Assembly: GCA_001563335.1 (NCBI GenBank) | Contig: LRSL01000113.1 | Span: forward strand, 1 to 21,868 | Length of the DNA stretch: 21,868 bases | Source of the DNA: Candidatus Thorarchaeota archaeon SMTZ1-45 | GTDB lineage: Archaea > Asgardarchaeota > Thorarchaeia > Thorarchaeales > Thorarchaeaceae | Direction of reading: 5' to 3' | Shown: positions 961 through 21,402 of the stretch, piece after piece | Position numbering within the stretch: the stretch's first letter is position 1 | Layout: each line of letters starts with the position of its first letter | Program-made: the position numbers and the translations under genes | Notes under the pieces: generated by a model | What the model was told of the DNA's origin: nothing | The model's input: the letters and a program-made list of their open reading frames with translations, nothing else | Database searches by the model: none

Positions 961-1491
961 TTGAGAAGAGGTTCATTGTGCATCTTTTGCTTTGAGGGAA
1001 CCCCTCGAGAGTTGGTTGATAGGCTAGTTGATACAAATCAAGACTGGTTCAAACGTCATTTTACTGAGGTCTTAATCCATTCAGAAGACCTTGCTGTCCC
1101 TGAGTGGTCGTTTGTTGCAAATAGACAGCAGTATAAAGCCCGATTCTTCTTACAAGCCCTTGAAGATCATGCATATCTCTCAAATCACGCTCTTGGTGTT
1201 GTCGATCTGGACCTGTTTGTACCAGATCTCAATTTCATCTTTGGAAGTGCTCAGTTCGGTGGTAATGCAATTGTTGCACTACCAAGGCTTCGTCAGTCCT
1301 TCTATGGTCTTCCTAATGATGACACCATATTCTTCCAACGCACCGTGAAAGAGGTATTTCATGAACTTGGTCATGTCATGGGACTTCGTCATTGTACTAA
1401 CTATTGTGTCATGCAGTTCTCCAACTCTCTTGCTGATACGGATCACAAACCAGATACTTACTGTAAAGACTGTATTCGAAGGTTGGAATAG
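961..1491 (+). CDS. Archaemetzincin-family Zn-dependent metalloprotease (peptidase M54)
   Basis: Metzincin motif HELGHVMGLRHC, then CVMQFSNS (Met-turn) and a C-terminal YCKDC Cys cluster. Also contains DLFVPDLNFIFG, typical of AmzA-type proteins. Confidence 0.9.
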   Translation: MRRGSLCIFCFEGTPRELVDRLVDTNQDWFKRHFTEVLIHSEDLAVPEWSFVANRQQYKARFFLQALEDHAYLSNHALGVVDLDLFVPDLNFIFGSAQFGGNAIVALPRLRQSFYGLPNDDTIFFQRTVKEVFHELGHVMGLRHCTNYCVMQFSNSLADTDHKPDTYCKDCIRRLE

Positions 1492-1751: not shown

Positions 1752-2132
1752 CTAACAAGCTGATATATTACTAGTAGGATCACTGAAGTTGTTGCCTTTC
1801 TCCGCCCAATATCGCATTTGAATGATATGTCTATAGAACTCCTGACCAATATTTGTCAGACTATATCCAGCTTCAGGATTGGATAATACTTGGTCAGTTC
1901 GTTTCACAAGACCAAGTGCGGTCAGATTGGCTAGGCACTTTGATATCTCTGATTTGCTTACATTCCTACCATTGTTTGAGCCTATTTTCTGGCGGAGTTC
2001 TCGGACACTTGGATTGTAGGTTCGCTCGCCGAGAGTAAGTATTACAGGAACTGCACAAGTACGCCCTAGCTGAGAAAAAATCTCACTCAAGGGCTCTTTT
2101 TTATTTAGATGGGTTATTTTGTTAGCTATCAT
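1752..2132 (-). CDS. Winged-helix transcriptional regulator, HxlR-like
   Basis: VSKSEISKCLANLTALGLVKRT...YSLTNIGQEF matches the HxlR/MarR winged-helix pattern; 126 aa. Confidence 0.7.
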   Translation of the reverse strand: MIANKITHLNKKEPLSEIFSQLGRTCAVPVILTLGERTYNPSVRELRQKIGSNNGRNVSKSEISKCLANLTALGLVKRTDQVLSNPEAGYSLTNIGQEFYRHIIQMRYWAEKGNNFSDPTSNISAC

Positions 2133-2409: not shown

Positions 2410-2850
2410 TTGATTGAATCAAAGTCAGATGTCGCAAATAGTATGCGAATTGTTATCTTCATCTTACTCGTATTGTTATGGGTGTTTGGACCATCAGTTT
2501 TTACTATCGCAGATCTTAACTACACAATAGCATCATTTGTTTGGATTCTGCAATATAGCTATCTATGGTTGGCAGTTTCATATGGATTTATTACTCCCAA
2601 TATTTTGGGATTCCTTTTTCATCTACCTAGATTCCTCTTCCTTTTGTATGTAATGCAAGCATTAGGAAAAAGTACAGAGTTCAAGAAGGCACTCTCTTAT
2701 GGATTTTTAGCAGAACTTCCATTCATATTAGGGGCTGTTTATTATGCGCTTTTTCCTCCAGGTGTCTATTCATACTATTTGGTAGTTCCAGTCCCAATCA
2801 TAACAATAATCGGAGTTCTGTTATTAATGCGGAAACCGCATGTCAAGTAA
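2410..2850 (+). CDS. Hypothetical multi-pass membrane protein
   Basis: 146-aa ORF with about 4-5 hydrophobic segments. TTG start preceded by a GGTG SD-like sequence. Confidence 0.7.
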   Translation: MIESKSDVANSMRIVIFILLVLLWVFGPSVFTIADLNYTIASFVWILQYSYLWLAVSYGFITPNILGFLFHLPRFLFLLYVMQALGKSTEFKKALSYGFLAELPFILGAVYYALFPPGVYSYYLVVPVPIITIIGVLLLMRKPHVK

Positions 2851-2876: not shown

Positions 2877-2938
2877 GCCGCATACGAACAAACAATAAGA
2901 TGGCACTCTCAAGACTCGCCAGCTGGCAAGACTCAAGC
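2877..2938 (+). repeat. Promoter repeat P5: longest displaced copy of the ACAD upstream region
   Basis: gccgcatacgaacaaacaataagatggcactctcaagactcgccagctggcaagactcaagc aligns along its whole length with 8707-8769 (gcctcatacgaaggaactataagcagggtactctcccctctcgcccgctggcaagactctagc). Confidence 0.85.
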
Positions 2939-3022
2939 CACTCTCTCAATAAACAGGAAGATTCAAATTTCTGATTCCATTTTGCTAATGTCTTATTCAG
3001 ACAAGCCTGAAGTGTGAGTTCT

Positions 3023-3706
3023 ATGTTCATTGGACATTACGGTATCGCTTTCGCTCTGAAGAAATATGCACCCAAGACATCGCTTGGAATCCTGTTCATT
3101 GCTGTTCAACTGGTGGATATTGCGTTCTTTATCCTTGTTCCACTGGGAATTGAACACCTCCGAATTATCCCTGGTTTTACCGAAGCCAGTCCCTTCGACC
3201 TCTATGATTATCCAATCACTCATAGTCTTCTTGGAGCCCTTGCATGGGCTGTTGCAACTTATCTCGTATTTCGCTTCATCCTCTTGAGAAGTACAACTGA
3301 TTATACCTATAGACTAAGCACTGCACTTGTCATGAGTGTAGCAGTGTTTTCCCACTTTATCTTGGACATTGTTGTCCACACTCCTGATCTGCTGCTTGTT
3401 CCAGGACTTGACATAAGAGTGGGACTAGGACTCTGGAACAGCATTATTGCTACTGTTGCAGTTGAACTTGCCATTCTTCTTGTGGGTTGTTGGATATACC
3501 TCCATTCAACAACTCAGGGGGTAGGATTGTTAGGAAAGTATGGAATGTATGTCTTCATGATTGTGCTTGCCATCATCACCATAGTGACACCATTCACGAC
3601 TTTTCCTGATGTATTAACGGTCGTAATAACATCAGAACTATTGTATGCAGTTTTCACTCTGTTAGCATGGTTGTTGGATAGTAAGAGGTATGTTGCTGCA
3701 GATTAG
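3023..3706 (+). CDS. Membrane-bound metal-dependent hydrolase-like protein (YdjM-like)
   Basis: Motifs MFIGH, QLVD, YPITHSL and SHFILDIVVH plus several TM helices. The ATG at 3023 is preferred over the GTG at 3014. Confidence 0.75.
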   Translation: MFIGHYGIAFALKKYAPKTSLGILFIAVQLVDIAFFILVPLGIEHLRIIPGFTEASPFDLYDYPITHSLLGALAWAVATYLVFRFILLRSTTDYTYRLSTALVMSVAVFSHFILDIVVHTPDLLLVPGLDIRVGLGLWNSIIATVAVELAILLVGCWIYLHSTTQGVGLLGKYGMYVFMIVLAIITIVTPFTTFPDVLTVVITSELLYAVFTLLAWLLDSKRYVAAD

Positions 3707-3901
3707 ATATAAGAATCCCTTCCCAGTATCGCGAAAGGGGAGGTTGAGTTTCAAAGGGACTAGCACTTCGTGACAAACAGAGCCTTTCCAGACTCGCCAG
3801 ACTCCAAAAATGGTAATAGAAAATACGGAAAGAATGAAAGTGGTGATGAGTATTACTACAAAATATATAATATTAGTTTCTATTAGATTATACGTATAGG
3901 A

Positions 3902-4225
3902 ATGTATGCGGTACTAGGTTTCATTGTCTTCATTGTGCTCATTTCAGTTTCGTTGCCAATTATCTTCCCTTCTATCTTGACAGGATGCGTCGCATTCCTT
4001 ATTGCCTTGAAGCCTGAAGACCATGAGGGCTGGCTCTATTATGGTGATTTGTTGATTAAGCAGAACCAATACATTGAGGCTCTTGATGCGTATCAGACGG
4101 CGGCTAAGTTGCGCCCAGACATTACTAAGATTTGGATGAAGCTTGGAAACCTCTTTAATGAGTTGGGTCAATTTGATGAAGCGGACAAGGCATTCCGAAC
4201 AGGACTAGGCTCCAATTTTCTTTGA
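3902..4225 (+). CDS. Membrane-anchored TPR-repeat protein
   Basis: Hydrophobic N-terminus followed by two TPR units (WLYYGDLLIKQNQYIEALDAYQTAAKLRPD; WMKLGNLFNELGQFDEADKAFR). Confidence 0.8.
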   Translation: MYAVLGFIVFIVLISVSLPIIFPSILTGCVAFLIALKPEDHEGWLYYGDLLIKQNQYIEALDAYQTAAKLRPDITKIWMKLGNLFNELGQFDEADKAFRTGLGSNFL

Positions 4226-4422
4226 AGAGTTTTAAGCACAGAATGAGAACAATTGATAGGAGAATTGATCGCTCTTTCAGATTTCTATTTGATACTTTGA
4301 AAAGAAAACATCAATAGCTTCTCCTGATTGTCTAGAAGATAATACACCATTTTATCAGGGACTTAAGTAAGTTCTATTGCTTTTGTAACTTGAAGAGAGG
4401 TATGAGCTAGCTAGATGATCAT

Positions 4423-4911
4423 TTACGATTTTACAATTCTCCTCTCGAAGTCATGGACATAGTATCTTTTCCCCTTTTTTACCACACCATGACCTTCAGC
4501 CTCAAGTAATGCTTTGTGTGATTCAAGACCTCCAGGATACTTCTCATTTAAGAATCCATCAGTCTTCAAGGTCCGCCAGTAAGGTATTTTGAGCCTTTTT
4601 CCTTCTTTTGCTGCTTCTTCTACAGCATTTGCCGCGGTCGTAATGAATATGCCAGCAGTTAAGGAACAGCATCCCTTTACACCAAAGTTTTGAGCAATTC
4701 TTGCACAGATCTCTCTAATGGTAATCAGTTTCCCTCTTGGAACAGATTTCATTACTCCGATGACATGACTCGGGTTCACTAGAACAACATCGTCTCCTTC
4801 TTCAACACCCATCTTCTGAAGCGCTTTGTAACAGGGAAAGCTCTTCTCGAGTTTCAAGACCTTTGGATATCCATCTTTGTCTTCCATCTTCTCTCGCCAA
4901 GTCTTCTTCAT
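4423..4911 (-). CDS. MGMT-family / alkyltransferase-like DNA-binding protein
   Basis: VPRGKLIT...EI and IPYWRTLK, with PYWR in place of the catalytic PCHR; C-terminal LLEAEG. Confidence 0.75.
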   Translation of the reverse strand: MKKTWREKMEDKDGYPKVLKLEKSFPCYKALQKMGVEEGDDVVLVNPSHVIGVMKSVPRGKLITIREICARIAQNFGVKGCCSLTAGIFITTAANAVEEAAKEGKRLKIPYWRTLKTDGFLNEKYPGGLESHKALLEAEGHGVVKKGKRYYVHDFERRIVKS

Positions 4912-5027
4912 AAGACCATTCTCCTAACAATGAACTCAATACTTCAGTTACGTGATTTATTTAATAATCGGTTGATACTGAGGTTCTTCACAATCAAATA
5001 ATAACCGGAGATTCTGTATATACCCAG

Positions 5028-5060
5028 CTCATACGAGGTAACAATAAGCAAGGGGCTTTC
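5028..5060 (+). repeat. Promoter repeat P4 (diverged)
   Basis: ctcatacgaggtaacaataagcaaggggctttc versus native ctcatacgaaggaactataagcagggtactctc. Confidence 0.75.
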
Positions 5061-5074
5061 GACCGGGTCATCAT

Positions 5075-5776
5075 CTAGGGTGAAGATCCATATGTATTTT
5101 CGAGAATCCTTTCAACATGACGATAACTCTTTGAAGTCATTGTTGGAATTAGAATTAAACCTAGAAGCAAGACAACAAAAGCAAGTAACATGGTAGTTAC
5201 CCAGAGTTCCATGGTAAGGAACTCGTCATAGACGAAGAAGAACAACTCAGAAAATGAAACTCCCCAGAATCCGAAAAGCCCTAATGCAAATCCACGGATT
5301 GGATTCACCCGGCCTAGCATGAGTACCTCTCTCGCAAGAACAACCTTTCCTTTCTCTCTCTTTCCAAGAATGTTGCCTATAGCACTCTCTGAGAGGAGAA
5401 TCGCTTTGAATAGAAGATTAGAGGTAGAGAGAAAGACGCCTTTATCAGTGCTGCGTGACCAGAGTTGGATTCGTCTGCTGGCACCGAGTTCATCCCTGAC
5501 TTCCTCAAAAAGGGTTAAAATCTCTGCATTTGTAACTGGATTTCGAAATAGTATCAACTTCAGACCAAAGACAATGAACTGTACAGCTGAACCAACTAGT
5601 AATGTAGTTATAGTCCACTGGAGTATATTAAACTCAATATTGGCAAAGAGTCTAATTCCTATCAGTCCAAGAGTCCAGACTAAGCTGCACATAACTAGCC
5701 CCTCTTGAAATGCCATCGTGAAAAGAAACACCCCTGACTGATTCTCAATAATGTCTGGATCGCCTAGCATACTCAA
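5075..5776 (-). CDS. Hypothetical membrane protein, possibly a degenerate M48/M56 peptidase-like fold
   Basis: TM-soluble-TM architecture. AILLSE...VVLAREVLML resembles the context of VLAHExxH but lacks the His ligands. Confidence 0.6.
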   Translation of the reverse strand: MSMLGDPDIIENQSGVFLFTMAFQEGLVMCSLVWTLGLIGIRLFANIEFNILQWTITTLLVGSAVQFIVFGLKLILFRNPVTNAEILTLFEEVRDELGASRRIQLWSRSTDKGVFLSTSNLLFKAILLSESAIGNILGKREKGKVVLAREVLMLGRVNPIRGFALGLFGFWGVSFSELFFFVYDEFLTMELWVTTMLLAFVVLLLGLILIPTMTSKSYRHVERILENTYGSSP

Positions 5777-5906
5777 GCTCCCACTCAGAGTGTTTCTTGA
5801 AGCGGTATGCTATAAGGATAACTGCGAATGGATGCTTTCAAGTTTTTAGTAGGAGAAAGTCATGCAGTTACAATTCGAGTGTAGATCGCATAGAAGTGTT
5901 ATAAAA

Positions 5907-5950
5907 GCCTCAGTCGTAGGAACTATAAGCAGGGCACTCTCCCCACTCAC
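5907..5950 (+). repeat. Promoter repeat P3
   Basis: gcctcagtcgtaggaactataagcagggcactctccccactcac versus 8707-8750 gcctcatacgaaggaactataagcagggtactctcccctctcgc. Confidence 0.95.
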
Positions 5951-5981
5951 TTCAAGAGGAGAAAACAGGTGAATTGAATCT

Positions 5982-6716
5982 TCACCTAATGAATGGCGGA
6001 GGAACTAATCTGAAGTAATAGGATAGTAGTACAAGGAAGACCCAGAAGATGAGTGTAGACACAAGGTATCTAAGAGGCCGCCCACGCGCCAAGGCGCTGA
6101 AATGAAGTGATTCAGGCAACTGCAGTCGAATTGGTAGAATGAAGGGAGTGCTTTGCTGGTACTGCACAAATGAATCTCCAAACTCTTTACTCAACCAGTA
6201 ATCCTCAAGGTCAGCAACCAGAATTAATAGAAATAGAACTGAACACACAGACACCAGATCACCAGGTCTTGTGGCTGGAAGAAGCAGACGTGAGAAACTG
6301 GTCTTAAGTGGAAAAGCTAGAAGGTACAACATGAGTAGGATTCCCAAGTGTTGAGGATGCCGTACCCACCCATAGGGGCCGTATGTGACTAGACCTTCTT
6401 TATGTATACGTGCCCTAGCAAGAGTGACTAGCCCATAACAGAGAAGGAATAGACCAAAGCAGAACATAAGAACTTGCGAGAACCGGAATGCAACTGCTAT
6501 TCCGGTTTCAAGTCCTCCAGGAGAAGAAGGATCGAACATATACACATAGCCAGTCCAGCTATTTGAGTAGGGAACTATGTAGCTGAGGAGCTCCCACGAG
6601 AAATACCAGCTAGCTAGTATCCAGACCATTGGTGTCAGTATGCCAGCGACAATTGGCAGATAGAGGCCAACAGATATAGCGGCAGCGGTTATGTTGCTAA
6701 CGACCCTTTTTAACAC
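5982..6716 (-). CDS. Isoprenylcysteine carboxyl methyltransferase (Ste14/ICMT/PEMT)-family membrane protein
   Basis: Signature LVTYGPYGWVRHPQHLG, then LED..LSKEFG..F..YQ..TPFILP; multiple TM helices. Confidence 0.85.
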   Translation of the reverse strand: MLKRVVSNITAAAISVGLYLPIVAGILTPMVWILASWYFSWELLSYIVPYSNSWTGYVYMFDPSSPGGLETGIAVAFRFSQVLMFCFGLFLLCYGLVTLARARIHKEGLVTYGPYGWVRHPQHLGILLMLYLLAFPLKTSFSRLLLPATRPGDLVSVCSVLFLLILVADLEDYWLSKEFGDSFVQYQQSTPFILPIRLQLPESLHFSALARGRPLRYLVSTLIFWVFLVLLSYYFRLVPPPFIR

Positions 6717-6834
6717 TAGCTGAGTCCTCCCTCACCGAAAAGATGCTACAGTGCATATGCTATATTTCGACCTCCAATGTCAAGAAGATTTTGTTCTCGG
6801 CACGCTAGACAGACTCTAAGGGTATATCCGCCCA

Positions 6835-6865
6835 ATACGAGGGAACTATAAGCAGGGCACTCTCC
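6835..6865 (+). repeat. Promoter repeat P2
   Basis: atacgagggaactataagcagggcactctcc; the 20-bp core is identical to P1 and P3. Confidence 0.95.
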
Positions 6866-6907
6866 AAACTTTCTCTATAGGGATACAGAGCAGAGGTTAT
6901 CTATTAT

Positions 6908-7525
6908 TTACGGTTGTTTGACCATAACCCAATGGAGGATGTTGGCTATGGGCAATGTGAATGAGTCAATAACATCGAAGCCGTAATGTTTGTAAATTTG
7001 TACAAGACCTTCATCCTGAGTTTCAAGGACGCAGGGTTTGTTTTGTGAACTACACATTGAGAGTACAGGTCGGACAAGCTTGCTTGCAAGACCTTTCCCT
7101 TGATAATCTGGATGAACTGCCAGTGATCCTAAATACCAATGGGGCTCAGAAATACACTCATCTCTCTTACTGACTACAAAACTCTCTACTTCTCGCATTC
7201 TTCTTAGAGTCTTGGAACCAGCGGCTCGATACAGTCCTATCCCTCCCGTTCTAATTGCTCTCAACCAACTGAACTCATTGTACTCCGATTGTGTAAGGAT
7301 AACAACGCCCTCAATGTTTTCAGATGTAGCAAGGATTTTTCCATAGAGGAAGCCATTCTTAACACGGTAATTAAAGAACTTTGGAAGGAATCTCAACCTG
7401 CTTTCTGGTTCCGGTAAGAAATAACACAATAGATGATCATCAAAAAAAGCCTGAACTAAAGTTTCAGTGACCTTCTTTACGTCCCTTTTTGTTACATGGT
7501 AGGGTTCAGGACTCGTGTTTTGCAT
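6908..7525 (-). CDS. GNAT-family N-acetyltransferase
   Basis: WYLGSLAVHPDYQGKGLASKLV (acetyl-CoA motif A), then LET...YKHYGF. Confidence 0.9.
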   Translation of the reverse strand: MQNTSPEPYHVTKRDVKKVTETLVQAFFDDHLLCYFLPEPESRLRFLPKFFNYRVKNGFLYGKILATSENIEGVVILTQSEYNEFSWLRAIRTGGIGLYRAAGSKTLRRMREVESFVVSKRDECISEPHWYLGSLAVHPDYQGKGLASKLVRPVLSMCSSQNKPCVLETQDEGLVQIYKHYGFDVIDSFTLPIANILHWVMVKQP

Positions 7526-7622
7526 TGGTAGTCAGTTTTTATTAAAAGACCTTTCTGATATACCTTAGGATGGCTTGAGAATTAAGATTCATGAATATTA
7601 CTCTTCTTCAACGCAGGACAAA

Positions 7623-7653
7623 CCTTATGCGAAGGAACTATAAGCAGGGCACT
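7623..7653 (+). repeat. Promoter repeat P1
   Basis: ccttatgcgaaggaactataagcagggcact; ends 6 bp before the stop codon of the convergent epimerase gene. Confidence 0.95.
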
Positions 7654-7659
7654 TGTCTT

Positions 7660-8598
7660 TCATGGTCCGGATTGGTTTAGGACTGTGCCTTCATGTAGAT
7701 TCTCGATCGTGGCTTTGAGACCCTCTTTATAGGAGGGGTACTCCAGCTCCCAGTCAAGCTCTCTTTTGGCCTTCTCGTTAGTCACCACACAGTCTATCTG
7801 CATAATGCTTAGAAGGAAACCACCAAGGACGATTCGAGCGATGAACATTGGAATAGTTCGTGGCTTTGGCAGTCCCATGCACTCCGCCATGTGCTCTGTG
7901 AATTCTCGCGTGGTACACGGAGTATCGTCAGCTATGATGAATGATTCACTCACAGGCTGTTTCTCTACTGCAAGAACAAAGGCCTGAGCACAGTCATCGA
8001 CATGAACCCTCGGGATGTGGTTGTCACCTCTCCCGAAGACGCCGGAGCGCCCATTCTTCATCATCTCGTACATCTTGAGGAACTGGCCACCCGGTCCATA
8101 GATCTGACCCGGGAGCATTATGATGAGTGGTTGTCCCTCCTTCTTTGCCCTAGCAATAAGCACGTCAGCCTCTTCGCCAGCCTTCGTGAGACCCGTCCTG
8201 ACAAGTGGCCAAGACTCGTCAGCTACCTGTCCCTGCTTAGTGCTGTAGGCAGTGCCAAGAGTCAGTATGGTCGGGCAGTCAAGTTTCTTCCCGATAGTGA
8301 GAGCGGTCGACACGAACTTGGTCGTCCTCTGCTTAATCTGAGCGAACTTGCTCTTTGATATTCTTCCGAACTCGAGAGGCATGGCTACAGAAATCACACA
8401 GTCCTGGGAACTTATGTTGTCTATGAACGCGTCCGGCTCCATAAGGTCGCCGACTATTATTTCGATGCTCCTGTTACGAAAATATTCCGCCGCGTCAGTT
8501 CGACGGGTGAGTATTGTGACCTCATGACCATGCGACGAAAGTCTGGAAACTATCCTTGAACCCAGAAATCCAGTACCACCAAGCACAAGTACTCTCAG
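7660..8598 (-). CDS. NAD-dependent epimerase/dehydratase (extended/atypical SDR)
   Basis: (M)RVLVLGGTGFLG Rossmann motif, PGQIYGPG and VHVDDCAQA. The start is probably CTG at 8598 (GGTGA SD 6 nt upstream, in-frame stop just before) rather than GTG at 8586. Confidence 0.9.
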   Translation of the reverse strand: MRVLVLGGTGFLGSRIVSRLSSHGHEVTILTRRTDAAEYFRNRSIEIIVGDLMEPDAFIDNISSQDCVISVAMPLEFGRISKSKFAQIKQRTTKFVSTALTIGKKLDCPTILTLGTAYSTKQGQVADESWPLVRTGLTKAGEEADVLIARAKKEGQPLIIMLPGQIYGPGGQFLKMYEMMKNGRSGVFGRGDNHIPRVHVDDCAQAFVLAVEKQPVSESFIIADDTPCTTREFTEHMAECMGLPKPRTIPMFIARIVLGGFLLSIMQIDCVVTNEKAKRELDWELEYPSYKEGLKATIENLHEGTVLNQSGP

Positions 8599-8706
8599 AA
8601 TGAGTCACCGATTGGCAGTCATAAATAAGAGATATTTAACTTGTTCATTGCAGTATTTTTAAAACGTCACAAAGAAGGTTTCTCATTTTGCGAGGAGGGA
8701 TAAGAC

Positions 8707-8769
8707 GCCTCATACGAAGGAACTATAAGCAGGGTACTCTCCCCTCTCGCCCGCTGGCAAGACTCTAGC
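8707..8769 (+). promoter_or_regulatory. Putative BRE/TATA promoter of the acyl-CoA dehydrogenase gene (source of repeats P1-P5)
   Basis: Purine-rich CGAAGGAA (BRE-like) directly before CTATAAGC (TATA-like, ~8723-8730), ~60 bp upstream of ATG 8786. GAGGT SD at 8776-8780. Confidence 0.7.
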
Positions 8770-8785
8770 AATCAAGAGGTAGTTT

Positions 8786-10030
8786 ATGATGCATTTTGAA
8801 GAGTCGGATGAAGAAAAGATGTTCCGCGAGGCAGTGCGTGAGTTCGCTCAGAAATACGTCGCGCCTGCGTGGAAAGAGTATGATGAACACACTCACGAGG
8901 TTCCGCGAGACCTCATCAAGAAGATGGCAGACCAGATGTTGTGGGCACCCACTGTGTCAGAGGAGTATGGTGGAGCCAATCTCTCTTGGGTGATGTCATG
9001 CATCGCCGCAGAGGAGCTTGCGAAGGCAGACCTCTCCATTGCACTCCCAGTCATGTACCTTGTTGAGGCTTCATGGGCGTTTATCTTTGACAAGTATGGC
9101 ACTCCCGAGGCGAAGGCTGAGATCCTCCCGCGTGTCACAAAGGGAGACCTGTTCTTTGGTATCGCAACCACTGAACCAACTGGTGGCTCTGACCTCGTCA
9201 ACTCGACCAAGACCACGATCAAGCCAAAGGGTGACAAGTTTGTCATCAATGGTGAGAAGGTGTATATCTCCGGCGTGGCTGAGTCCGAGAAGTACGGTGG
9301 TGTATACTGGACACTGGCTAAGTCGGACCCGAAGGGCGACCACAAGGCATTCGATGGGTTCATTCTCCCGCTGAACATGGGTGATGGACTGCATCCTGGA
9401 ATCACAACCACGCTGTTTGAGGACATGGGGCGGATGGGTGTGTCCTGTGGTGGATTCAACATCGAGAATGTGGAGATTCCGAAGCACTACATCATCGGCG
9501 AGCGTGGGAGAGGATTTTATTATGCCATGATGGGTTTCAGTGCAGCCCGCGTGTTAATCGCAGCCACTTGCCTTGGTGCCGCACAAGCATGTTTTGACAT
9601 TGGTGTTGACTATGTTAAACAACGCAAGCAGTTCGGACGACCACTCGCGGCTTTTGAAGGCATAATGTTTGAAGGAGTCGATTCATGGATGGCAATTCAA
9701 GCTGACAGACATCTAACATATCATGCAGCCTGGATCATGGATGAAGTCTATAGTAGAAACAACAAAAACTACGACCATCTCGATATTGCCAGGTACACCG
9801 CTGCAGCCAAATACAAAGCACCACACGATGCTCTTGACATCATTACTCGTGCCATGACTTGGCACGGTGCCTTTGGATACTCCAAGGAATGTCCCCTCGA
9901 AGCTTCTTATAGGGGTGTTCGTTCATACACTGTTGGAGCTGAAGGGGGGTCTCATATACAGAAAATCGTCATGGGTCGAGAAATTTTCGGACCCGAATGT
10001 CTTCCATATCGTCAGGAAAAGCAGATGTAA
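8786..10030 (+). CDS. Acyl-CoA dehydrogenase (anchor gene of the array)
   Basis: Family motifs: SEEYGG, FGIATTEPTGGSD, INGEKVYIS, IGERGRGF, R-x-QFGRPL, HGAFGYSKE and catalytic-region GAEGGSHIQK; 414 aa. Confidence 0.96.
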   Translation: MMHFEESDEEKMFREAVREFAQKYVAPAWKEYDEHTHEVPRDLIKKMADQMLWAPTVSEEYGGANLSWVMSCIAAEELAKADLSIALPVMYLVEASWAFIFDKYGTPEAKAEILPRVTKGDLFFGIATTEPTGGSDLVNSTKTTIKPKGDKFVINGEKVYISGVAESEKYGGVYWTLAKSDPKGDHKAFDGFILPLNMGDGLHPGITTTLFEDMGRMGVSCGGFNIENVEIPKHYIIGERGRGFYYAMMGFSAARVLIAATCLGAAQACFDIGVDYVKQRKQFGRPLAAFEGIMFEGVDSWMAIQADRHLTYHAAWIMDEVYSRNNKNYDHLDIARYTAAAKYKAPHDALDIITRAMTWHGAFGYSKECPLEASYRGVRSYTVGAEGGSHIQKIVMGREIFGPECLPYRQEKQM

Positions 10031-10044
10031 TCAAAATCAATGAA

Positions 10045-10064
10045 AAGGGAGCCTATGCTCCCTT
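10045..10064 (+). terminator. Hairpin after the ACAD stop codon
   Basis: aagggagc-ctat-gctccctt, a perfect 8-bp stem followed by a T-rich run. Confidence 0.7.
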
Positions 10065-10079
10065 CTTTCTATTTATATC

Positions 10080-10382
10080 TCACTCTTCATATTCGTATAG
10101 ATTCTTGTTGCATTCTGGACATTGTTCAGGCGGTTTTTCTCCCTGATTAAATTTTAAATAGCATCCTCCAGACCTACATTCAACCCAATAGATATCATCA
10201 GAGTCAGGAGGTTCAAATTCAGCAAAGTGGTCATCAACAGGACCCATAAGTCTGAATCCTTCTTCCTTTAGCTTCGTAATAAATTTCAATCTGTCCTTGA
10301 GAGCCTTAATCACATCAGTGATGCTCTTACAATTATAGCCAGTAATCATTTGTTTGAAAAAGAATGCAAGGGCAATTTTCAT
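10080..10382 (-). CDS. Small hypothetical protein with C-terminal Zn-ribbon (paralog A)
   Basis: YWVECRSGGC...CPEC; aligns along its length with the neighbouring ORF. Confidence 0.75.
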   Translation of the reverse strand: MKIALAFFFKQMITGYNCKSITDVIKALKDRLKFITKLKEEGFRLMGPVDDHFAEFEPPDSDDIYWVECRSGGCYLKFNQGEKPPEQCPECNKNLYEYEE

Positions 10383-10414: not shown

Positions 10415-10768
10415 TCATTCATGTGGCTTCACTCTATGACACTGGTTGCAGCTTGTTGGTTGCTGTGTTCTTTTTAGCAACTCTAGATGATATCCACAAG
10501 TCCTACAACGACCCCAATAGAATCCCTTACGCTTTGGAGGGATAATCTCGAGATAATCCTCAGCATCTCCCTCTCGGACTCTGTAACCTTCATTCTTCAA
10601 TTGATTGAAATATTCAATCTCTTTCTCAATTGCATGGATTATATCATCAATCGACTCACAATCTGCTTCAAGACTTAGGAATTTGAAACGATGGATACTC
10701 GGTATACAGTCAAGACATCCACAGTCGAATGAATCTAACCCAGTATTTCTACAACGTTCCTCATACAC
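10415..10768 (-). CDS. Small hypothetical protein with C-terminal Zn-ribbon (paralog B)
   Basis: YWGRCRTCG...CNQC, plus an extra N-terminal Cys cluster (C...DCGCLDC). Confidence 0.75.
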   Translation of the reverse strand: MYEERCRNTGLDSFDCGCLDCIPSIHRFKFLSLEADCESIDDIIHAIEKEIEYFNQLKNEGYRVREGDAEDYLEIIPPKRKGFYWGRCRTCGYHLELLKRTQQPTSCNQCHRVKPHE

Positions 10769-10950: not shown

Positions 10951-10995
10951 TTTGGAGCAAATTATCTGCTGTACAAGCAGGAGAAACAAATGTAG
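10951..10995 (+). repeat. ACAD tail copy T1 (short, degenerate, no clear hairpin)
   Basis: tttggagcaaattatctgctgtacaagcaggagaaacaaatgtag = FGANYLLYKQEKQM*. Confidence 0.85.
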
Positions 10996-11086
10996 AATCT
11001 TTGAGTGAGTTTAGCTGAGATAGATGTAAATTACATGTATGTAGAGATGTTTCAAACTCTTATTCGAAGAGGGGGTACAGCAAACC

Positions 11087-11542: not shown

Positions 11543-11553
11543 ACTATGACCTA

Positions 11554-11645
11554 ATGTCACGAAAGATATTCAGACCAGACTATCTGCCGTACAGGCAAGA
11601 GAAACAGATGTAGTTTCAAGTTTCAATCGAGAGAGGTGTTCCTCT
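11554..11645 (+). repeat. ACAD tail copy T2 plus hairpin
   Basis: 11554-11613 = MSRKIFRPDYLPYRQEKQM*, then tttcaagtttcaatc and agagg-tgtt-cctct. Confidence 0.95.
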
Positions 11646-11714
11646 TTATCCCCTCATTTTTATATTGATTACTAGATTGGGTGGAGTGTGTTTCGTTCTC
11701 TGGTGGGGATTGAG

Positions 11715-13682: not shown

Positions 13683-13691
13683 AGAACTTAT

Positions 13692-13785
13692 ATGGGCAGA
13701 GAGATATTCGGACCGGACTATCTTCCATATCGCCAAGAGAAACAGATGTAGTTTCTAGAAATGGAGAGAGAGGGGATTCCTCTCT
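13692..13785 (+). repeat. ACAD tail copy T3 plus hairpin
   Basis: 13692-13751 = MGREIFGPDYLPYRQEKQM*; hairpin agagagg-ggatt-cctctct (13767-13785). Confidence 0.95.
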
Positions 13786-13862
13786 TGCTCTTTACTTACG
13801 ATTGACTTTTCTCATTTGAGCCTTTTTTGAAAAAAGAGAAATAGAAGCTAGAACAAGTAGGA

Positions 13863-14060
13863 ATGATCAAAATGACGAGGGATATGTGGAAGGTAGCCAG
13901 GTGGATAGCAATCGTGTATTTGATACTTGGAGCTGTATTTACAGCCTTGTGGTGGTTTGGATTCATTGTACTTGGTGCTGGCAATCCGGTTTCGGAGTTC
14001 TTCTTTTATTTCTTCTTGCCAGTATGGGCTTTATTTACATCCTTTATTCCACCATTATGA
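13863..14060 (+). CDS. Small hypothetical membrane protein (2 TM)
   Basis: 65 aa, strongly hydrophobic; the only plausible gene between T3 and T4. Confidence 0.6.
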   Translation: MIKMTRDMWKVARWIAIVYLILGAVFTALWWFGFIVLGAGNPVSEFFFYFFLPVWALFTSFIPPL

Positions 14061-14136
14061 TATGATTGAAAACTTGGATTTCCCCTTCATGTTATCAACA
14101 CTTGCAAGCGGCAACTACAGGTGCATAAATGCTAAT

Positions 14137-14237
14137 ATTGTCATGGCACGCGAGATATTCGGACCCGACTATCTACCGTACAGGCAAGAAAAACAGATGT
14201 AGATTCAAACTTTCAAACGAGAGAGGAGCTTCCTTTC
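14137..14237 (+). repeat. ACAD tail copy T4 plus imperfect hairpin
   Basis: IVMAREIFGPDYLPYRQEKQM* (stop at 14202); gagagg-agctt-cctttc. Confidence 0.95.
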
Positions 14238-14268
14238 GAAGAAAAGTGGAGTCTGGACTGTCTACTAG

Positions 14269-14374
14269 AAGGTGGTAATGGCACGGGAGTTACTGGGAGC
14301 AGAAAACCTCCCCTACCGCCAAGAGAAACAGATGTAGATTCAAGCTTCAAATCGAGAGAGGGTTCTCCTCTCTC
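14269..14374 (+). repeat. ACAD tail copy T5 plus hairpin (divergent allele)
   Basis: KVVMARELLGAENLPYRQEKQM* (stop at 14337); gagagagg-gttct-cctctctc (14354-14374). Confidence 0.93.
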
Positions 14375-14384
14375 CTCACTATTT

Positions 14385-14894
14385 CTATCTCTGAAAGAAC
14401 TTCCGTGTGATCCTCTTTTCCTCTGAGAATTTCATTTCAGCCTCATCAAGGACAGAACGATAGCCTTCCTGTTCTTCACCTCTCATTTTGGCGGCTTTCA
14501 TTTGATCCAGTTTGTCTTCCCAGAATTCCACAATCTCAGGATGATTTTCAAAATAGTCTTCCAATCTATCATGTATCTGCCTAAGAAAGCCCTGGGGGTC
14601 ATACGCAATTCTCGACAAGATAGTTGTGTACCAAAGAAATGGATAAGTTTCAATAGACTGCAAAACCATATTCAGTGGTTCGACACTCATGTCGATCTTG
14701 ATTCCTCTTCGGTACTCCTCTATGAATTGATGTGTTTCAATGCTCTCTGAAATCACCCCGAGATCAACGTCAGAATCAGGTCTAATATCACCAGTCACTA
14801 GACTTCCAGCAATTTCAATACCAACTATTGATGGGTCTTTCTTGAGTTCCTCGACAACTTCTTCTGCAATTTTTTCCTGTAGGGTTTCCATCAT
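14385..14894 (-). CDS. Nucleotidyltransferase domain protein (Pol-beta/MNT/KNTase-like)
   Basis: IAGSLVTGDIRPDSDVDLGVI contains the GS...DxD motif; third Asp in GIKIDMS. Confidence 0.85.
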   Translation of the reverse strand: MMETLQEKIAEEVVEELKKDPSIVGIEIAGSLVTGDIRPDSDVDLGVISESIETHQFIEEYRRGIKIDMSVEPLNMVLQSIETYPFLWYTTILSRIAYDPQGFLRQIHDRLEDYFENHPEIVEFWEDKLDQMKAAKMRGEEQEGYRSVLDEAEMKFSEEKRITRKFFQR

Positions 14895-14918: not shown

Positions 14919-15941
14919 TCATTCAACAGTATCGTTGAATAGGACTATCCTGTAACGTGCCTTGTTCTCCTTTACCTTCCGAATCGCCTCGTTTACCTTC
15001 GTCATAGGCATCAACTCCACTTTAGGCATGATGTTGTACTCCTGTGCGAACGAGAACATCTCCCGCATTGTGGTCCGATTGCCGAGGAAAGAACCAGTGA
15101 TCGACAGTTGACGTGCCACGAGTTCAGTCGAATTGAACTCCACGTCTGGAAAGCCGATAAGGACCAGCCTGCCCTTTTTCTTCAAGATATTCAATAGTGC
15201 CTCCCAGTTGATTTTGTTTGAGGCGGTGCACAGAAGCAGGTCAAAACTAAGCATAGCCTCTCGCAAGCTTGTCTGGTCGTCCGAAGAGAGGAAGTGGTCT
15301 GCACCAAAGGAAAGCGCCTCCTGTTTCTTCTCCGGAGAGGAGGAAATGGCTGTGACATCGTAGTCGAGAGCCCGTGCGAACTGTAATGCAAGGTGACCCA
15401 GACCTCCCACACCGATGATACCAATTTTCCGCGCGGGTTGCGTTGCGTACGAACGAAGCGGCGAGTAGACCGTGACCCCGGCACACGTTAACACAGCGGC
15501 CACCTCAGAAGGCATGTCGTCAGGCAGCTGATAGACAAAGCGGCTATCCGCGATGACGGAGGACGAGAAGCCACCATAGGGGACCCAGGTTCCTGATGGA
15601 ACAATGTCCAAGCAAAGCTGGTCTTCTCCCTGCAAACACCACTCACATTGCATACAAGACCGACCCTGCCAGCCGATGGCAACTCGATCCCCTTCCTTCA
15701 AACCGGATGCCGCATGGCCCACTTCCGACACATGTCCAACGATTTCATGACCTGGGACGAAGGGAAAGGTGGTTATATCGTAGTAATTGTCGATGGCATG
15801 GATGTCGCTATGGCACACACCGCAGTGCGTGACAGAAACCCTGACATCATGCTCCCCCAGTTTGGGTGGCTCGTAGGTGATTGGCTCGAGCGGTTGCCCT
15901 ACCGCCTTCGCTGCGTATCCCAAGACTTTTGAAGAAGACAT
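14919..15941 (-). CDS. ahr: Zn-dependent NAD(P)-dependent alcohol dehydrogenase / aldehyde reductase (CAD family, Ahr/YjgB-like)
   Basis: CGVCHSD, PGHEIVG, structural Zn site CMQCEWC...C, GVGGLGHLALQFA and the C-terminal ARYRIVL. Confidence 0.9.
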   Translation of the reverse strand: MSSSKVLGYAAKAVGQPLEPITYEPPKLGEHDVRVSVTHCGVCHSDIHAIDNYYDITTFPFVPGHEIVGHVSEVGHAASGLKEGDRVAIGWQGRSCMQCEWCLQGEDQLCLDIVPSGTWVPYGGFSSSVIADSRFVYQLPDDMPSEVAAVLTCAGVTVYSPLRSYATQPARKIGIIGVGGLGHLALQFARALDYDVTAISSSPEKKQEALSFGADHFLSSDDQTSLREAMLSFDLLLCTASNKINWEALLNILKKKGRLVLIGFPDVEFNSTELVARQLSITGSFLGNRTTMREMFSFAQEYNIMPKVELMPMTKVNEAIRKVKENKARYRIVLFNDTVE

Positions 15942-16043
15942 TCGCAGAACCTCTCCTGTTCAGTAGCGCGCATCCAATGGAACAGCTGAGCATGCTGTCG
16001 GACGTTGATTGAACAGAGAATATTAGTATTCCGTTAAACAGAG

Positions 16044-16149
16044 AAGATTGTCATGGCACGAGAGATCTTCGGACCCGACCTTCTGCCGTACAGACAAGAG
16101 AAACAGATGCAGGTTCAAGTTTCAAACCGAGAGAGGTTCTTCCTCTCTC
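16044..16149 (+). repeat. ACAD tail copy T6 plus hairpin (stop mutated TAG>CAG)
   Basis: KIVMAREIFGPDLLPYRQEKQMQ; gagagagg-ttctt-cctctctc (16129-16149). Confidence 0.95.
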
Positions 16150-16243
16150 AATCCCTTTTCTTTATCGACTCAATATTTTGTTCGAACAATTGATAAGATA
16201 ATATATTATCGGTGGAAACCGCGATACCTGCAATAGCTTTGAA

Positions 16244-17821: not shown

Positions 17822-17883
17822 ATCATACTCGCACTAGTTCAGATTCAATGATGGATCGTAACTGCTAGATTAGCTGTACCGAG

Positions 17884-17990
17884 AAGATCGTCATGGCGCG
17901 TGAGATATTCGAATCTGAGTATCTGCCGTACAAGCAAGAAAAACAGATGTAGTTTCGAATTCAGTAGAGAGAGGTTCTTCCTCTCTCTAC
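17884..17990 (+). repeat. ACAD tail copy T7 plus hairpin
   Basis: KIVMAREIFESEYLPYKQEKQM* (stop at 17952); perfect 11-bp stem gtagagagagg-ttctt-cctctctctac (17964-17990). Confidence 0.95.
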
Positions 17991-18076
17991 GTTTCTTTTC
18001 AATACAATGGACAACGTGCAAATCTTATTAGAATCCACTTTGCATTCAAATCGGTTTAATACTGGAGGAAGTCTAA

Positions 18077-20264
18077 TTGAAGAGTAGGACTGCTACGATT
18101 CGCAACATCGTAGTAGTTGTCGCTGCGATCACTCTCATTTCAAGTTCCATTCCTTTTGATAGTTATTCAAATCCAACTGCGAGAAACGATATGATGAACA
18201 GTTCAGAGAAACCAATCAATGTCTACCTTGCGAATGTTCTACATGGACCCATCATCATAACCTCAAACAATGACTTCTCTGCACAGGGATTCCTAGGAAG
18301 TGGCTCTGAATCGAGTCCATATCTCATTGAGAACTACAGCATCAACACGACAGGCACCTGTATTTCTATATCGAACACTGATGCGCATTTCATAGTCCGG
18401 AAATGTCTACTCACGGGAGGGGATGATGGAGATGGGATACTCATGGACAATGTGATGAATGGGGAGATAAGTAACAACAGCATATCTCAAAAGGACAGAC
18501 CCCTACATCTTCTCCTTTCGTCTAATAATATGATAGTTAATAACACGATCTCAGAAAACCGCTTACAAGTGACCCTCCACTCCTCTACGAATAACGAGGT
18601 CCTTGAGAACAATATTTCTGACAACTCAGGAGGTCTCTACCTCTTATCGTCTCCAAACAACCTTGTCGCTAATAACAGCATCCTAGCAGGTTTTGGGACT
18701 GGTATAATTCTTGAAAACTCCCCTGAATCAACACTTACAAAAAACATCATCTCAAACAACCAAGGAGGAATTTACCTTCATAGCTCATCAAGAAGCATCA
18801 TTACAAATAATACATTATCAGAAAATATCGGATATGGAATCATTCTTGATGACTCATCGGAAGTCAGACTTTCATCAAACATCTTACTAAACAATGGATT
18901 TGGTATTCTGGGAAATAGCGTTGAGGAATGGAAGCACGATATTTCTACTGACAATCTTGTGAATGGAAAGCCCATTGGTTACTTCTGGGATTTGCATGGG
19001 GAACGCATAGACGAGAATCCATATTATCTGATGATCTTCGCAAACTGTACTAACATCACAGTAGAGAATATCGTCTTCGATAGAAGTAGCATTACCTTAG
19101 GATTTTCATCAAACTGCACACTGAATAATAACACCTCCTTAGAGAGTCAAGGATTTGGAATCTCCTTTTACTACTCCGTGGACAATAAAGTGACCAACAA
19201 TAGATGCAATAGTCTTTCTTTGAGGTATTCATCAAACAACGACTTGTTTTACAACACAATCTCCGGGACTAGTTATGTTGGCGTAAATCTCAGAGTATCC
19301 TCGTACAACAGAATTGAAGGAAACACTATTTCGGGATTTGAAGATGGTCTGTGGCTCTATGAGGAATCTACCCATAACCATGTGGTGAACAACACAATAT
19401 CTGAATCCCTTATGTATGGAGCAAATCTCCTTTACTGGTCCAATAATAATACGTTCTCAGACAACCATATCGACGGCGTGCATCTTCACGAAGCACATAG
19501 CAATGATTTCGTGAACAACACCTTTTCAGGTGGAGATATCGCGGGAGTAGACATGTTCGGTTCTTCAAATATCAAGATATTGAACAACAATATTTCTGGG
19601 AATAGTATCGGTATGTCACTCAAGTGGTGTCTTTCTAAATTCCGGAACACACGACAACCTACTGTGTCTCAATGTCTTTGGGAACAATGGAGATGCCGAT
19701 GCACGAGATAACGGTAATGGAAATCAGTGGAACAGCACAGGAATTGGCAACTATTGGTCAGACTATCCCGGAACTGGAGCCTACTACATTCCGGGAGATG
19801 CTGGCGCCATCGATTACCATCCCCACGGATACACTGACACAGAACCACCTATAATCAGCAATCCAGCAGATATTGAGTACATTGAGGGGACCTTGGGTAA
19901 TAGCATCACATGGAGTCTAACTGAAGATCATCCCTCTCACTATGTGATATATCGGAATGGTATTCTGGTTGATTCAGGAGATTGGGATAGTGATTTGATT
20001 AACACAAGCATCGATGGCCTGAATCCAGGAGCCTACTACTTCACAATTGTAGTCTTTGATATCTACAACAATTGGAGCAGTGATGAGGTCATTGTCACTG
20101 TGTTAGCAGCGGAACCTACTTCAATTCCAACAGTAACTACGACATCAACCATTCCCTCTGAGAATGATATTCCTCATCCTATTCTGGTTGTGATATTAAT
20201 CGCAGAAATTGGAGTCGTAATGATACTGCTGGTCTTACTCTCTAAACAACAACGTGGACTGTGA
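18077..20264 (+). pseudogene. Frameshifted NosD-like parallel beta-helix surface protein with Ig-like domain and TM anchor
   Basis: Frame 1 (from 18077) has Asn-rich beta-helix turns up to GNSIGMSL (~19620). A shifted frame continues SSGVFLNSGTHDNLLCLNVFGNN...GIGNYWSDY...DTEPPIISNPADIEYIEGTLGNSITW and runs straight into ORF 19893-20264. Confidence 0.85.
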
Positions 20265-20276
20265 AAAAGAGAATAG

Positions 20277-20379
20277 ATTGTCATGGCTCGTGAGATCTTC
20301 GGACCTGACTATCTGCTGTACAGGCAAGAGAAGCAGATGTAGTTTCAAACTTCAATCGAGAGAGGTTCGCCCCTCTCTC
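20277..20379 (+). repeat. ACAD tail copy T8 plus hairpin
   Basis: IVMAREIFGPDYLLYRQEKQM* (stop at 20342); gagagagg-ttcgcc-cctctctc (20358-20379). Confidence 0.95.
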
Positions 20380-20445
20380 CTCCACTCATTTTTCATTCAT
20401 TGATCCGCATAGGGTGTCCATCATTCGACCTGAGTCAAAGCTAGC

Positions 20446-21192: not shown

Positions 21193-21260
21193 GCATGATG
21201 AACAGCTTCACTCCCGCAAAAGTATTGTGCCGTGGTTCCATAAAGATGAGGTGCGTAATG

Positions 21261-21360
21261 GTCATGGCACGCGAGATCTTCGGTCCAGACTATCTGCTGT
21301 ACAGGCAAGAGAAACAGATGTAGTCTCATTTTGTATTTCGAGGGAGATTCATGCTCCCTC
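21261..21360 (+). repeat. ACAD tail copy T9 plus hairpin
   Basis: VMAREIFGPDYLLYRQEKQM* (stop at 21323); gagggag-attcatg-ctccctc (21340-21360). Confidence 0.95.
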
Positions 21361-21402
21361 ATTCTTCATTTTGGATTGTAGGTGTATAGTAGTAGCGAAC
21401 TC

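Follow-up and report, generated by a model that had tools for sequence, protein, structure and literature searches.

The stretch of DNA analysed here, referred to as the window, comprises 21,868 nt of contig LRSL01000113.1 (positions 1 to 21,868, forward strand; assembly GCA_001563335.1) of Candidatus Thorarchaeota archaeon SMTZ1-45. It contains an intact and highly conserved acyl-CoA dehydrogenase (ACAD) gene that anchors two arrays, one on either side, in which partial copies of the gene's own ends are interspersed with other genes. Upstream, the recurring element corresponds to the ACAD promoter; downstream, it corresponds to the last 21 codons of the gene and the hairpin that follows them. 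The ends that are in place at the gene are termed native and the displaced copies orphans. The features that define the two arrays are as follows.

8707 to 8785, plus strand: native ACAD promoter and 5′ untranslated region (UTR), with CGAAGG resembling a B recognition element (BRE), TATA-like CTATAAG at 8722–8728 and Shine–Dalgarno-like GAGGTAG before the ATG
8786 to 10030, plus strand: ACAD gene, intact, 414 amino acids, three ACAD Pfam domains
7622 to 7654, plus strand: orphan promoter copy 1 (E = 1e-9), 20-mer intact, ending in GGCACT; the stop of the minus-strand epimerase gene is 5 nt away
6830 to 6871, plus strand: orphan promoter copy 2 (E = 4e-13), 20-mer intact, right end CTCTCC
5907 to 5952, plus strand: orphan promoter copy 3 (E = 1e-12), 20-mer intact, right end ...CCCCACTCAC
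5026 to 5060, plus strand: orphan promoter copy 4, diverged (E = 2e-9), TATA box reading CAATAAG
2877 to 2940, plus strand: orphan promoter copy 5, diverged but long (E = 5e-8), right end GACTCAAGC
9965 to 10073, plus strand: native 3′ unit, in which the last 21 codons and the stop are followed by a spacer, an 8-bp hairpin (AAGGGAGC..GCTCCCTT) and a T-rich tail
10951 to 11001, plus strand: orphan 3′ unit, truncated (E values of all nine orphan units, 3e-7 to 5e-33)
11548 to 11656, plus strand: orphan 3′ unit
13685 to 13795, plus strand: orphan 3′ unit
14134 to 14238, plus strand: orphan 3′ unit
14267 to 14381, plus strand: orphan 3′ unit
16042 to 16156, plus strand: orphan 3′ unit
17882 to 17993, plus strand: orphan 3′ unit
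20273 to 20383, plus strand: orphan 3′ unit
21257 to 21366, plus strand: orphan 3′ unit, after which the array runs off the window

The upstream element had been described in a first-pass annotation, made from the sequence alone, as a promoter core of 20 nt that recurs between single-gene cassettes. Indeed, the 20-mer GGAACTATAAGCAGGGCACT is found without change at 5919–5938, 6842–6861 and 7634–7653 and with one mismatch in the native promoter at 8719–8738, all on the plus strand. These are the only four matches in the window at up to three mismatches, while shuffled sequences contained 0.01 matches on average and none of 100 reached four. The repeat is longer than the 20-mer, its left edge lying about 12 nt further out (GCCTCATACGAAGG...), and the right-hand ends of the copies are ragged, as had been described (GGCACT in the copy at 7622, CTCTCC in that at 6830 and ...CCCCACTCAC in that at 5907). 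Of the three more diverged copies that had been proposed further upstream, those at 5026 and 2877 were recovered by a profile hidden Markov model (HMM) trained on the six window copies, whereas the one at 1585 gave no match at E ≤ 0.01 and shows, by eye, the right half only, without the TATA box. The left part of the copy at 5907 carries the GCCTCAGTCG variant, which is native in the promoters of loci L004 and L005 of the comparison set introduced below. The copy at 2877 extends over part of the 5′ UTR (..GCTGGCAAGACTCAAGC) and lies 73 nt upstream of a plus-strand open reading frame (ORF) at 3014–3706. Between the genes for a YdjM-like and a tetratricopeptide repeat (TPR) protein, at 3745–3800, 11 bases (AGACTCGCCAG) match the 5′ UTR portion of the copy at 2877; they may be another eroded remnant of a promoter, one that escapes the profile.

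Each of the four proximal intervals holds one ORF, as the first-pass annotation had stated (5075–5776, 5982–6716, 6908–7525 and 7660–8586; ORFs were called mechanically, with a minimum of 110 amino acids). These four ORFs and that at 4423–4911 are all on the minus strand. Each plus-strand promoter copy is located 5–36 nt past the stop of the gene to its right and points into that gene, and the genes' own 5′ regions (96–130 nt) are on the side away from the copy. Since the copies stand beyond the 3′ ends of these minus-strand genes, they cannot serve as the promoters of these genes. Three features had been overlooked, namely that the cargo genes lie on the opposite strand, that there is a larger array downstream of ACAD and that both arrays recur in other Thorarchaeota MAGs (metagenome-assembled genomes), and the earlier interpretation stands only in part.

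For comparison, a genome collection was scanned with the ACAD protein, which yielded 72 loci (L-numbered), nearly all from MAGs titled Thorarchaeota. About 40 of the contigs carry an orthologue that is 81–91% identical to the window's ACAD, and many contigs break off within the gene or shortly behind it. The sample consists of ACAD neighbourhoods, so that profile matches at unrelated loci would lie outside its view. The first profiles were trained on window copies (six for the promoter) and later ones on native copies, and the scores are biased in favour of the training copies, whether the window's own or the natives.

Native promoter regions were listed for the 36 loci with the ACAD 5′ end in view. 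A CGAA(G)..CTATAAG block is conserved about 60 nt before the ATG, with GAGGTAG just before the start, and conservation stops about 10 nt before CGAA; in more than 25 loci, between-genome homology begins at window positions 8700–8712. With the short promoter profile, CTATAAG proved exact in 21 of 22 native copies. The ACAD block thus displays a TATA box with an upstream BRE at a position conserved in orthologues, which is the archaeal promoter pattern. As had been proposed, the repeated 20-mer is, from this conservation, the core of ACAD's own predicted BRE/TATA-type promoter and not a genome-wide element. Occurrence of the motif at unrelated loci would have spoken against this, but all 40 profile matches (six in the window and 34 in 21 other loci) lie upstream of ACAD and in its orientation; there were none downstream of ACAD, and none on the 33 loci without an ACAD 5′ end, within the ACAD neighbourhoods sampled. 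Upstream arrays are found in several genomes, with four copies each in L021 and L036, three in L039 and two each in L034, L011, L006, L037 and L020.

The orphans are altered in ways in which the natives are not. CTATAAG is kept in 9 of 18 promoter orphans by the short profile, and in the three inner orphans of L036 the TATA positions read CCGTAGG, CTGTGAG and CTACAAG. The longer native profile detected 14 promoter orphans with an outer edge at −85 to −98 and an inner edge anywhere from −44 to +66 relative to the ATG. The orphan in L011 reaches across the entire 5′ UTR and ~66 nt into the coding sequence. In L036, the orphan beside the epimerase cassette breaks off right behind CATACGAAGG, so that the cut falls between BRE and TATA. 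The spread of the inner ends and this last cut imply that there is no single insertion point near the transcription start; the insertion just downstream of the TATA box that had been suggested is not supported. The promoter orphans look like cast-off former promoters. Those of the window are about as close to the native promoters of other genomes as to their own, a comparison that involves few informative sites.

The downstream array is the more extensive one. The last ~66 nt of the ACAD frame, with the stop, spacer, hairpin and T-rich tail, recur nine times between 10951 and 21366 in the orientation of ACAD. The window units are 62–79% identical to one another, and their translations still read (K)IVMAREIFGPDYLPYRQEKQM followed by a stop. 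Between successive units there are 0–2 ORFs on either strand. Among the 72 loci, the 3′ profile gave 208 matches, 10 in the window and 198 in 60 other loci. The native-only profile retrieved 165 orphan copies, all on the plus strand with respect to ACAD; the one weak minus-strand match, obtained with the short profile, overlaps a plus match at the hairpin. No orphan 3′ unit was present in the 10-kb downstream flank of L015, L017 or L033. The left edge of the orphans is sharp: 133 of 165 start 61–80 nt before the end of the stop, three reach −150 to −160, and in an alignment of 79 orphans a drop in entropy shows homology to switch on between −67 and −66, that is between ...GAAG and ATCGTCATGG. 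The right edge has its mode at +40 to +59 (106/165).

The 3′ orphans were once functional gene ends. Alignments were anchored on the context of the stop codon, which retained 79 orphan and 12 native units and dropped those that were truncated or lacked the anchor pattern. Entropy at codon positions 1, 2 and 3 is 0.26, 0.15 and 1.18 in the natives (n = 12) as compared with 0.59, 0.52 and 1.11 in the orphans (n = 79), and the frame remains open in 68 of the 79 orphans. The codon periodicity and the open frames imply that the orphans acquired most of their diversity as coding sequence and decayed afterwards. After the stop, a helix of at least 6 bp starting about 16 nt downstream is present in 11 of 11 natives and 55 of 64 orphans, forming a hairpin of 6–10 bp. 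Compared with shuffled sequences, the helices have a median z of approximately −3.6 to −4; their arms form 51 different pairs in 66 helices, and T makes up 55% of the 15 nt that follow. RNAalifold found no consensus for the post-stop region because the stems lie in different registers, and it was replaced by folds of individual sequences. The hairpin with its T-rich stretch looks like a terminator.

Three further observations concern the 3′ units. The orphan nearest ACAD (10951–11001) is truncated on both sides and has no hairpin, and the interval before it contains two minus-strand ORFs (10080–10382 and 10415–10768) without a clear Pfam family, the first with a weak, sub-threshold rubredoxin-like match. 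At 14134–14381, only 28 nt and no ORF separate two complete units; such an empty cassette would be expected from the loss of a cassette through recombination at the unit edges. Finally, in the complete chromosome CP070761.1 (L069), orphan units at 1089–1187 and 2807–2923 are located 7–9 kb upstream of a distant ACAD paralogue (27% identity) and likewise of thiolase and OB-fold genes; no ACAD orthologue is present within the 1.1 kb of flank upstream of them. The arrays may therefore extend far from the anchor gene, or persist without it.

The copies do not appear to stem from the gene beside which they now lie. Natives and orphans are intermixed, both hairpin types occurring in both classes. 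Identity in the coding part averages 0.776 within loci and 0.735 between loci, and in the post-stop part 0.686 and 0.672, respectively (60 versus 2715 pairs), and the nearest relatives of the window's 3′ orphans are in other genomes, where they include native ends (L007, L009). The copies within one genome are thus almost as diverse as the global pool and have their relatives elsewhere, which argues for import from many lineages rather than local duplication; the diversity of the source lineages can be regarded as established. L009 is instructive in this respect: its first orphan carries a post-stop sequence that is native in L006 (91% identity over the unit), whereas its native end has the commoner GAGGGAGG-type hairpin. 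Since the native end differs in type from the first orphan, the functional end must have been replaced and the old one displaced. L006 and L009 were also considered as a clean insertion polymorphism; this was rejected, the unit being common to both and the downstream DNA not.

Comparison of neighbourhoods shows the gain or loss of cassettes to take place precisely at the repeats. The epimerase cassette (window 7628–8720) is 86.6% identical in L036, is continuous with ACAD in L039, as it is in the window, and is bounded inside the promoter copies. Relative to L039, the epimerase cassette of L036 is separated from ACAD by an extra 6137 nt that contain three further promoter copies, and the junctions overlap by 12 nt inside the promoter copy. 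Downstream, L064 has 3121 nt and two 3′ units more than L042, with a 72-nt overlap inside the 3′ unit. Inserts at ACAD are flanked by direct repeats that are partial copies of the ends of the target gene, and the target itself is intact. The L036 segment, by its position, agrees with the earlier proposal that the newest cassette adjoins ACAD, although this is no strict rule. Between the cassettes common to both loci, 5982–6716 and the epimerase, the window has a GNAT cassette and L039 unrelated DNA of similar length, so that an interior cassette has been replaced. Similarly, the distal neighbours of the ADH cassette differ among L002, L035 and the window, where it occupies the second, third or sixth interval.

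The cassettes encode no recombinase. Neither PF00589 nor any other recombinase family was found with Pfam in the 23 ORFs of the window, and no integrase, transposase or resolvase in any of the 356 cluster representatives from the 72 loci; nor is there an integrase or integrase fragment in the 663 kb examined, the single TnpB-like ORF being 9 kb from an array-free ACAD in L015. The window contains no tRNA genes and no Rfam match at the gathering score. An autonomous element with either unit as its attP site was also considered: the 3′ unit was unmatched in phage and plasmid collections and the promoter block in phages, which is weak evidence against such an element since these collections hold few if any Asgard elements.

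Taken together, the anatomy of the two arrays, which is established along with its recurrence across genomes, is probably, if by a modest degree, the outcome of serial insertion at both ends of ACAD with regeneration of the gene end each time. Insertion at the 5′ end would leave ACAD with an intact promoter and push a copy of the former promoter outward; insertion at the 3′ end would leave it with an intact C-terminus and terminator and push outward the former last 21 codons and terminator. The outcome would be two arrays of compact, mostly single-gene cassettes, with what appear to be their own promoters, separated by orphan gene ends. The sharp edge at −66 favours a site-specific recombination step at the 3′ end and, as the cassettes encode no recombinase, the enzyme would have to act in trans. 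At the 5′ end, the join may be imprecise and driven by homology, or the orphans may have eroded because a live antisense promoter was harmful to the neighbouring cassette gene. After insertion, recombination between repeat copies would shuffle, replace and delete cassettes, which would explain why cassette order and age are not preserved. A bolder version, which we put forward only tentatively and consider rather doubtful, is a dedicated integron-like platform: a recombinase acting in trans, two sites (the promoter, and the last 21 codons with the terminator), replacement ends supplied with the incoming DNA so that the near-invariant anchor gene would never be disrupted, and compact, self-expressed single-gene cassettes that circulate among diverged lineages.

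A number of observations weigh against serial insertion in this form. Each of the indels could equally be a deletion between direct repeats, and no enzyme, circular form or pair of empty and filled sites with a known direction is seen in these MAG contigs. Cassette order among the genomes, which the first-pass annotation had wanted compared, is not nested as a last-in stack predicts, and with the replaced GNAT cassette and the wandering ADH cassette this contradicts a strict newest-next-to-ACAD order. The apparent age gradient fares no better: the window case consists of five copies, whose profile scores outward from ACAD are 37, 48, 47, 36 and 32, and of the seven downstream arrays that contain at least three orphans, only one shows scores declining outward. 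The ragged inner ends on the 5′ side are at odds with a single crossover point. At the 3′ end, the breakpoints of common cassettes (37 in-register alignments of high identity among 114 anchored copies, shorter and out-of-register alignments having been dropped) scatter from −81 to +54 within the unit, and alignments of high identity between natives frequently break off at −73 to −88. Decoupling of the native 3′ unit from the gene body is only modest, with a Spearman coefficient of 0.42 for the tail and 0.50 for a control window; among seven close pairs, identity falls below 80% in the tail of four and in the control window of one. The cassette at 13863–14060 is 96.6% identical to its counterpart in L050 from just after one unit to just before the next, and the flanking units are less similar, so that units do not simply travel with the cargo. 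Lastly, Pfam may miss divergent recombinases, and all comparison DNA comes from MAG contigs, many ending at the repeats; some arrays could be strain chimeras.

Alternatively, host homologous recombination may have acted without any dedicated enzyme, with ACAD and the repeats as portable homology: DNA of related strains or species would be added, swapped or lost through crossovers in ACAD and in the repeats, and an occasional illegitimate join would create a truncated orphan. We regard this as a serious contender, albeit on balance an unlikely one. It would readily accommodate the ragged inner ends of the promoter orphans, the breakpoints spread over the 3′ unit, the mosaic units in which the same hairpin follows different coding tails, the replacement of an interior cassette between common flanks and the failure to find a recombinase. 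Random illegitimate joins would not be expected, however, to produce a sharp inner edge near −66 in most of 165 3′ orphans from many genomes, and units that are ~70–80% identical over ~120 nt are a poor substrate for homologous recombination. Nor would random fragments be expected to yield compact single-gene units in which the gene ends 2–8 nt from a repeat.

An improbable explanation is that the arrays originated locally, through repeated duplication in place of the ACAD ends (as long target-site duplications, or as tandem copies with internal deletions) and subsequent decay. The confinement of the copies to the vicinity of ACAD, in its orientation, is what this would predict, and the roughly 2:1 entropy ratio between third and first or second codon positions might arise if the native end evolved while the copies decayed. 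Copies within a genome would then not be almost as diverse as the global pool, nor would the first orphan of L009 match the native end of L006 rather than its own; moreover, scores do not fall with distance from ACAD and the cargo is heterogeneous in G+C content at third codon positions (GC3). It seems comparably improbable that each promoter copy is a live functional motif rather than a fossil, whether as an antisense regulator, as the promoter of the next plus-strand gene or as an insulator. Three window copies do retain a perfect 20-mer in spite of differing flanks, and the copy at 2877 precedes a plus-strand ORF by 73 nt. The loss of CTATAAG in 9 of 18 orphans, as compared with 1 of 22 natives, and the truncation of inner ends at many positions are contrary to this, and recent origin explains the identity of the 20-mer, which is the native sequence of the close relatives L001, L021 and L034.

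Very improbable is an assembly artefact, with MAG contigs misjoined at the repeats. Many contigs do end in or beside ACAD or at a 3′ unit, but copies that are 62–79% identical are too diverged to be collapsed or misjoined in short-read assemblies, and the same architecture is present in dozens of independent assemblies, including the interior of long contigs and one complete chromosome. Least probable of all is a canonical integron or an integrase-less attC cluster (CALIN), for which mostly single-ORF arrays without integrases and the enrichment of integrons and CALINs in Asgard genomes (reported in PMC9668308) might speak, but the units are copies of a host gene's end, their only structure is an 8-bp hairpin, ORFs lie on both strands, no IntI was found, and the reading of the 3′ units as attC sites was rejected because R″/R′ core motifs at attC spacing (57–141 nt apart) are present in none of 75 units on either strand.

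Among described processes, the nearest would be the building of islands by repeated integration at tRNA genes, as in tycheposons. In Prochlorococcus (bioRxiv 10.1101/2020.12.28.424599), such islands arise by repeated integration at a tRNA gene and partial copies of the target are left behind; the resemblance extends to incoming DNA that brings a copy of the target's end, older arrivals pushed outward, scattered partial copies and accessory cargo. Tycheposons differ, according to the same source, in targeting tRNA genes and in carrying integrases, of which degraded fragments remain. The ACAD locus, by contrast, is a protein-coding target hit at both ends, with units of ~1.2 kb that mostly hold one gene.

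Elements that replace a gene's end come close behind. Phage 21 and e14 integrate in the 3′ end of icd. Islands at the 5′ end of dusA are reportedly formed by elements that integrate in the end of a protein-coding gene and supply a replacement end (PMC4482086). In these elements, as at ACAD, the gene is kept intact by the substitute end and the displaced partial copy differs mostly at silent sites. They are single, large, integrase-encoding and bacterial, whereas ACAD, an archaeal gene, has long rows of integrase-free, single-gene units on either side. With integrons and CALINs (PMC9668308), the ACAD locus shares a fixed platform, growing rows of compact and mostly single-gene cassettes, a recurring unit, the absence of a recombinase from the cassettes and a diverse cargo. 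It is set apart from them by units other than attC sites, which copy the end of a host gene, by ORFs on either strand that apparently have their own promoters, by the lack of IntI and attI and by the existence of two arrays with two different units. In rhs/cdiA toxin genes, orphan C-terminal modules are displaced into a row downstream, and there, as at ACAD, displaced 3′ ends of one gene accumulate; the displaced rhs/cdiA ends are variable, functional toxin tips with immunity genes, whereas those of ACAD are conserved and are interspersed with cargo that has no relation to the gene. Integrase-bearing elements with an 11-bp motif have been described from complete Atabeyarchaeia genomes, and their architecture is unlike that of the ACAD arrays. 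In the literature searched, which left subscription journals and supplements uncovered, we found no account of ACAD-flanking or two-sided gene-end cassette arrays in Asgard archaea.

The cassettes themselves are small. The 146 intervals between 3′ units have a median length of 1234 nt, and 94 hold one ORF, 27 two and 16 none; one orientation does not prevail as it does among integron cassettes (106 ORFs on the minus strand versus 86 on the plus strand). One ORF is likewise found in 12 of 18 promoter-to-promoter intervals, and at six places in the window a gene ends 2–8 nt from a repeat unit. The genes upstream of ACAD in the window are the following.

961 to 1491, plus strand: M54 (archaemetzincin-like) peptidase gene, 67% identical at the amino acid level to L020:8883–9407 and found in 1 of the 72 loci
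1752 to 2132, minus strand: outer gene, HxlR-like regulator
2410 to 2850, plus strand: outer gene
3014 to 3706, plus strand: outer gene, YdjM-like
3902 to 4225, plus strand: outer gene, TPR protein
4423 to 4911, minus strand: cassette gene, MGMT-like DNA-binding domain
5075 to 5776, minus strand: cassette gene, no family
5982 to 6716, minus strand: cassette gene, membrane protein
6908 to 7525, minus strand: cassette gene, GNAT
7660 to 8586, minus strand: cassette gene, NAD-dependent epimerase family

In L020, the M54 peptidase gene and a TPR gene are directly upstream of ACAD, and the peptidase gene is a candidate for the ancestral left neighbour of ACAD. GC3 of the cargo ranges from 0.32 to 0.62 in the window. 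The epimerase (7660–8586) and ADH (14919–15941) genes, at 0.57 and 0.62, resemble ACAD (0.54), most other cargo having 0.32–0.49, and these two cassettes are also the ones common to other genomes.

The cargo is diverse, 575 ORFs falling into 356 clusters that include enzymes, membrane proteins, regulators, NosD/β-helix surface proteins, PIN, HEPN/nucleotidyltransferase and restriction–modification genes. The largest cluster other than ACAD, with 21 members, consists of NosD/right-handed β-helix proteins with internal repeats of 66–69 nt (window 18077–20264, 21403–21868 and 2–631). ORFs 18077–19711 and 19893–20264 may be one interrupted gene or two domains; relatives of the latter also occur separately in L003 and L004. 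Toxin–antitoxin-like cargo is found at L051:115–895, window 14385–14894, L016:6525–7001 and L061:4274–4690, and comprises a HEPN and nucleotidyltransferase pair, a lone nucleotidyltransferase and PIN-domain proteins. Defence-type genes, namely type I restriction–modification subunits, OLD-family ATPase/TOPRIM and Schlafen/AlbA_2, stand beside ACAD where orphans are few or absent (L015:11313–21234, L017:11961–18211 and L026:5065–11186). The ACAD site is a variable island even in places from which the repeats are gone.

Asgard archaea have large, gene-rich genomes with much horizontally acquired DNA, and the routes by which this DNA enters are poorly known. ACAD is, on the sequences compared, a lineage-wide hot spot for gene insertion in Thorarchaeota, and the locus provides a concrete site where accessory genes have collected in dozens of genomes, among them genes for enzymes, membrane and surface proteins, regulators and defence. 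Each event leaves behind a datable, cast-off gene end, which makes the site a readable record. As the repeats break assemblies here, this flexible region is probably under-represented in Thorarchaeota MAGs. Should an enzyme acting in trans be responsible, the arrays would join integrons as a second kind of cassette-capture system; if host recombination alone is at work, they would illustrate how high conservation can make a gene a landing pad that is portable between species.

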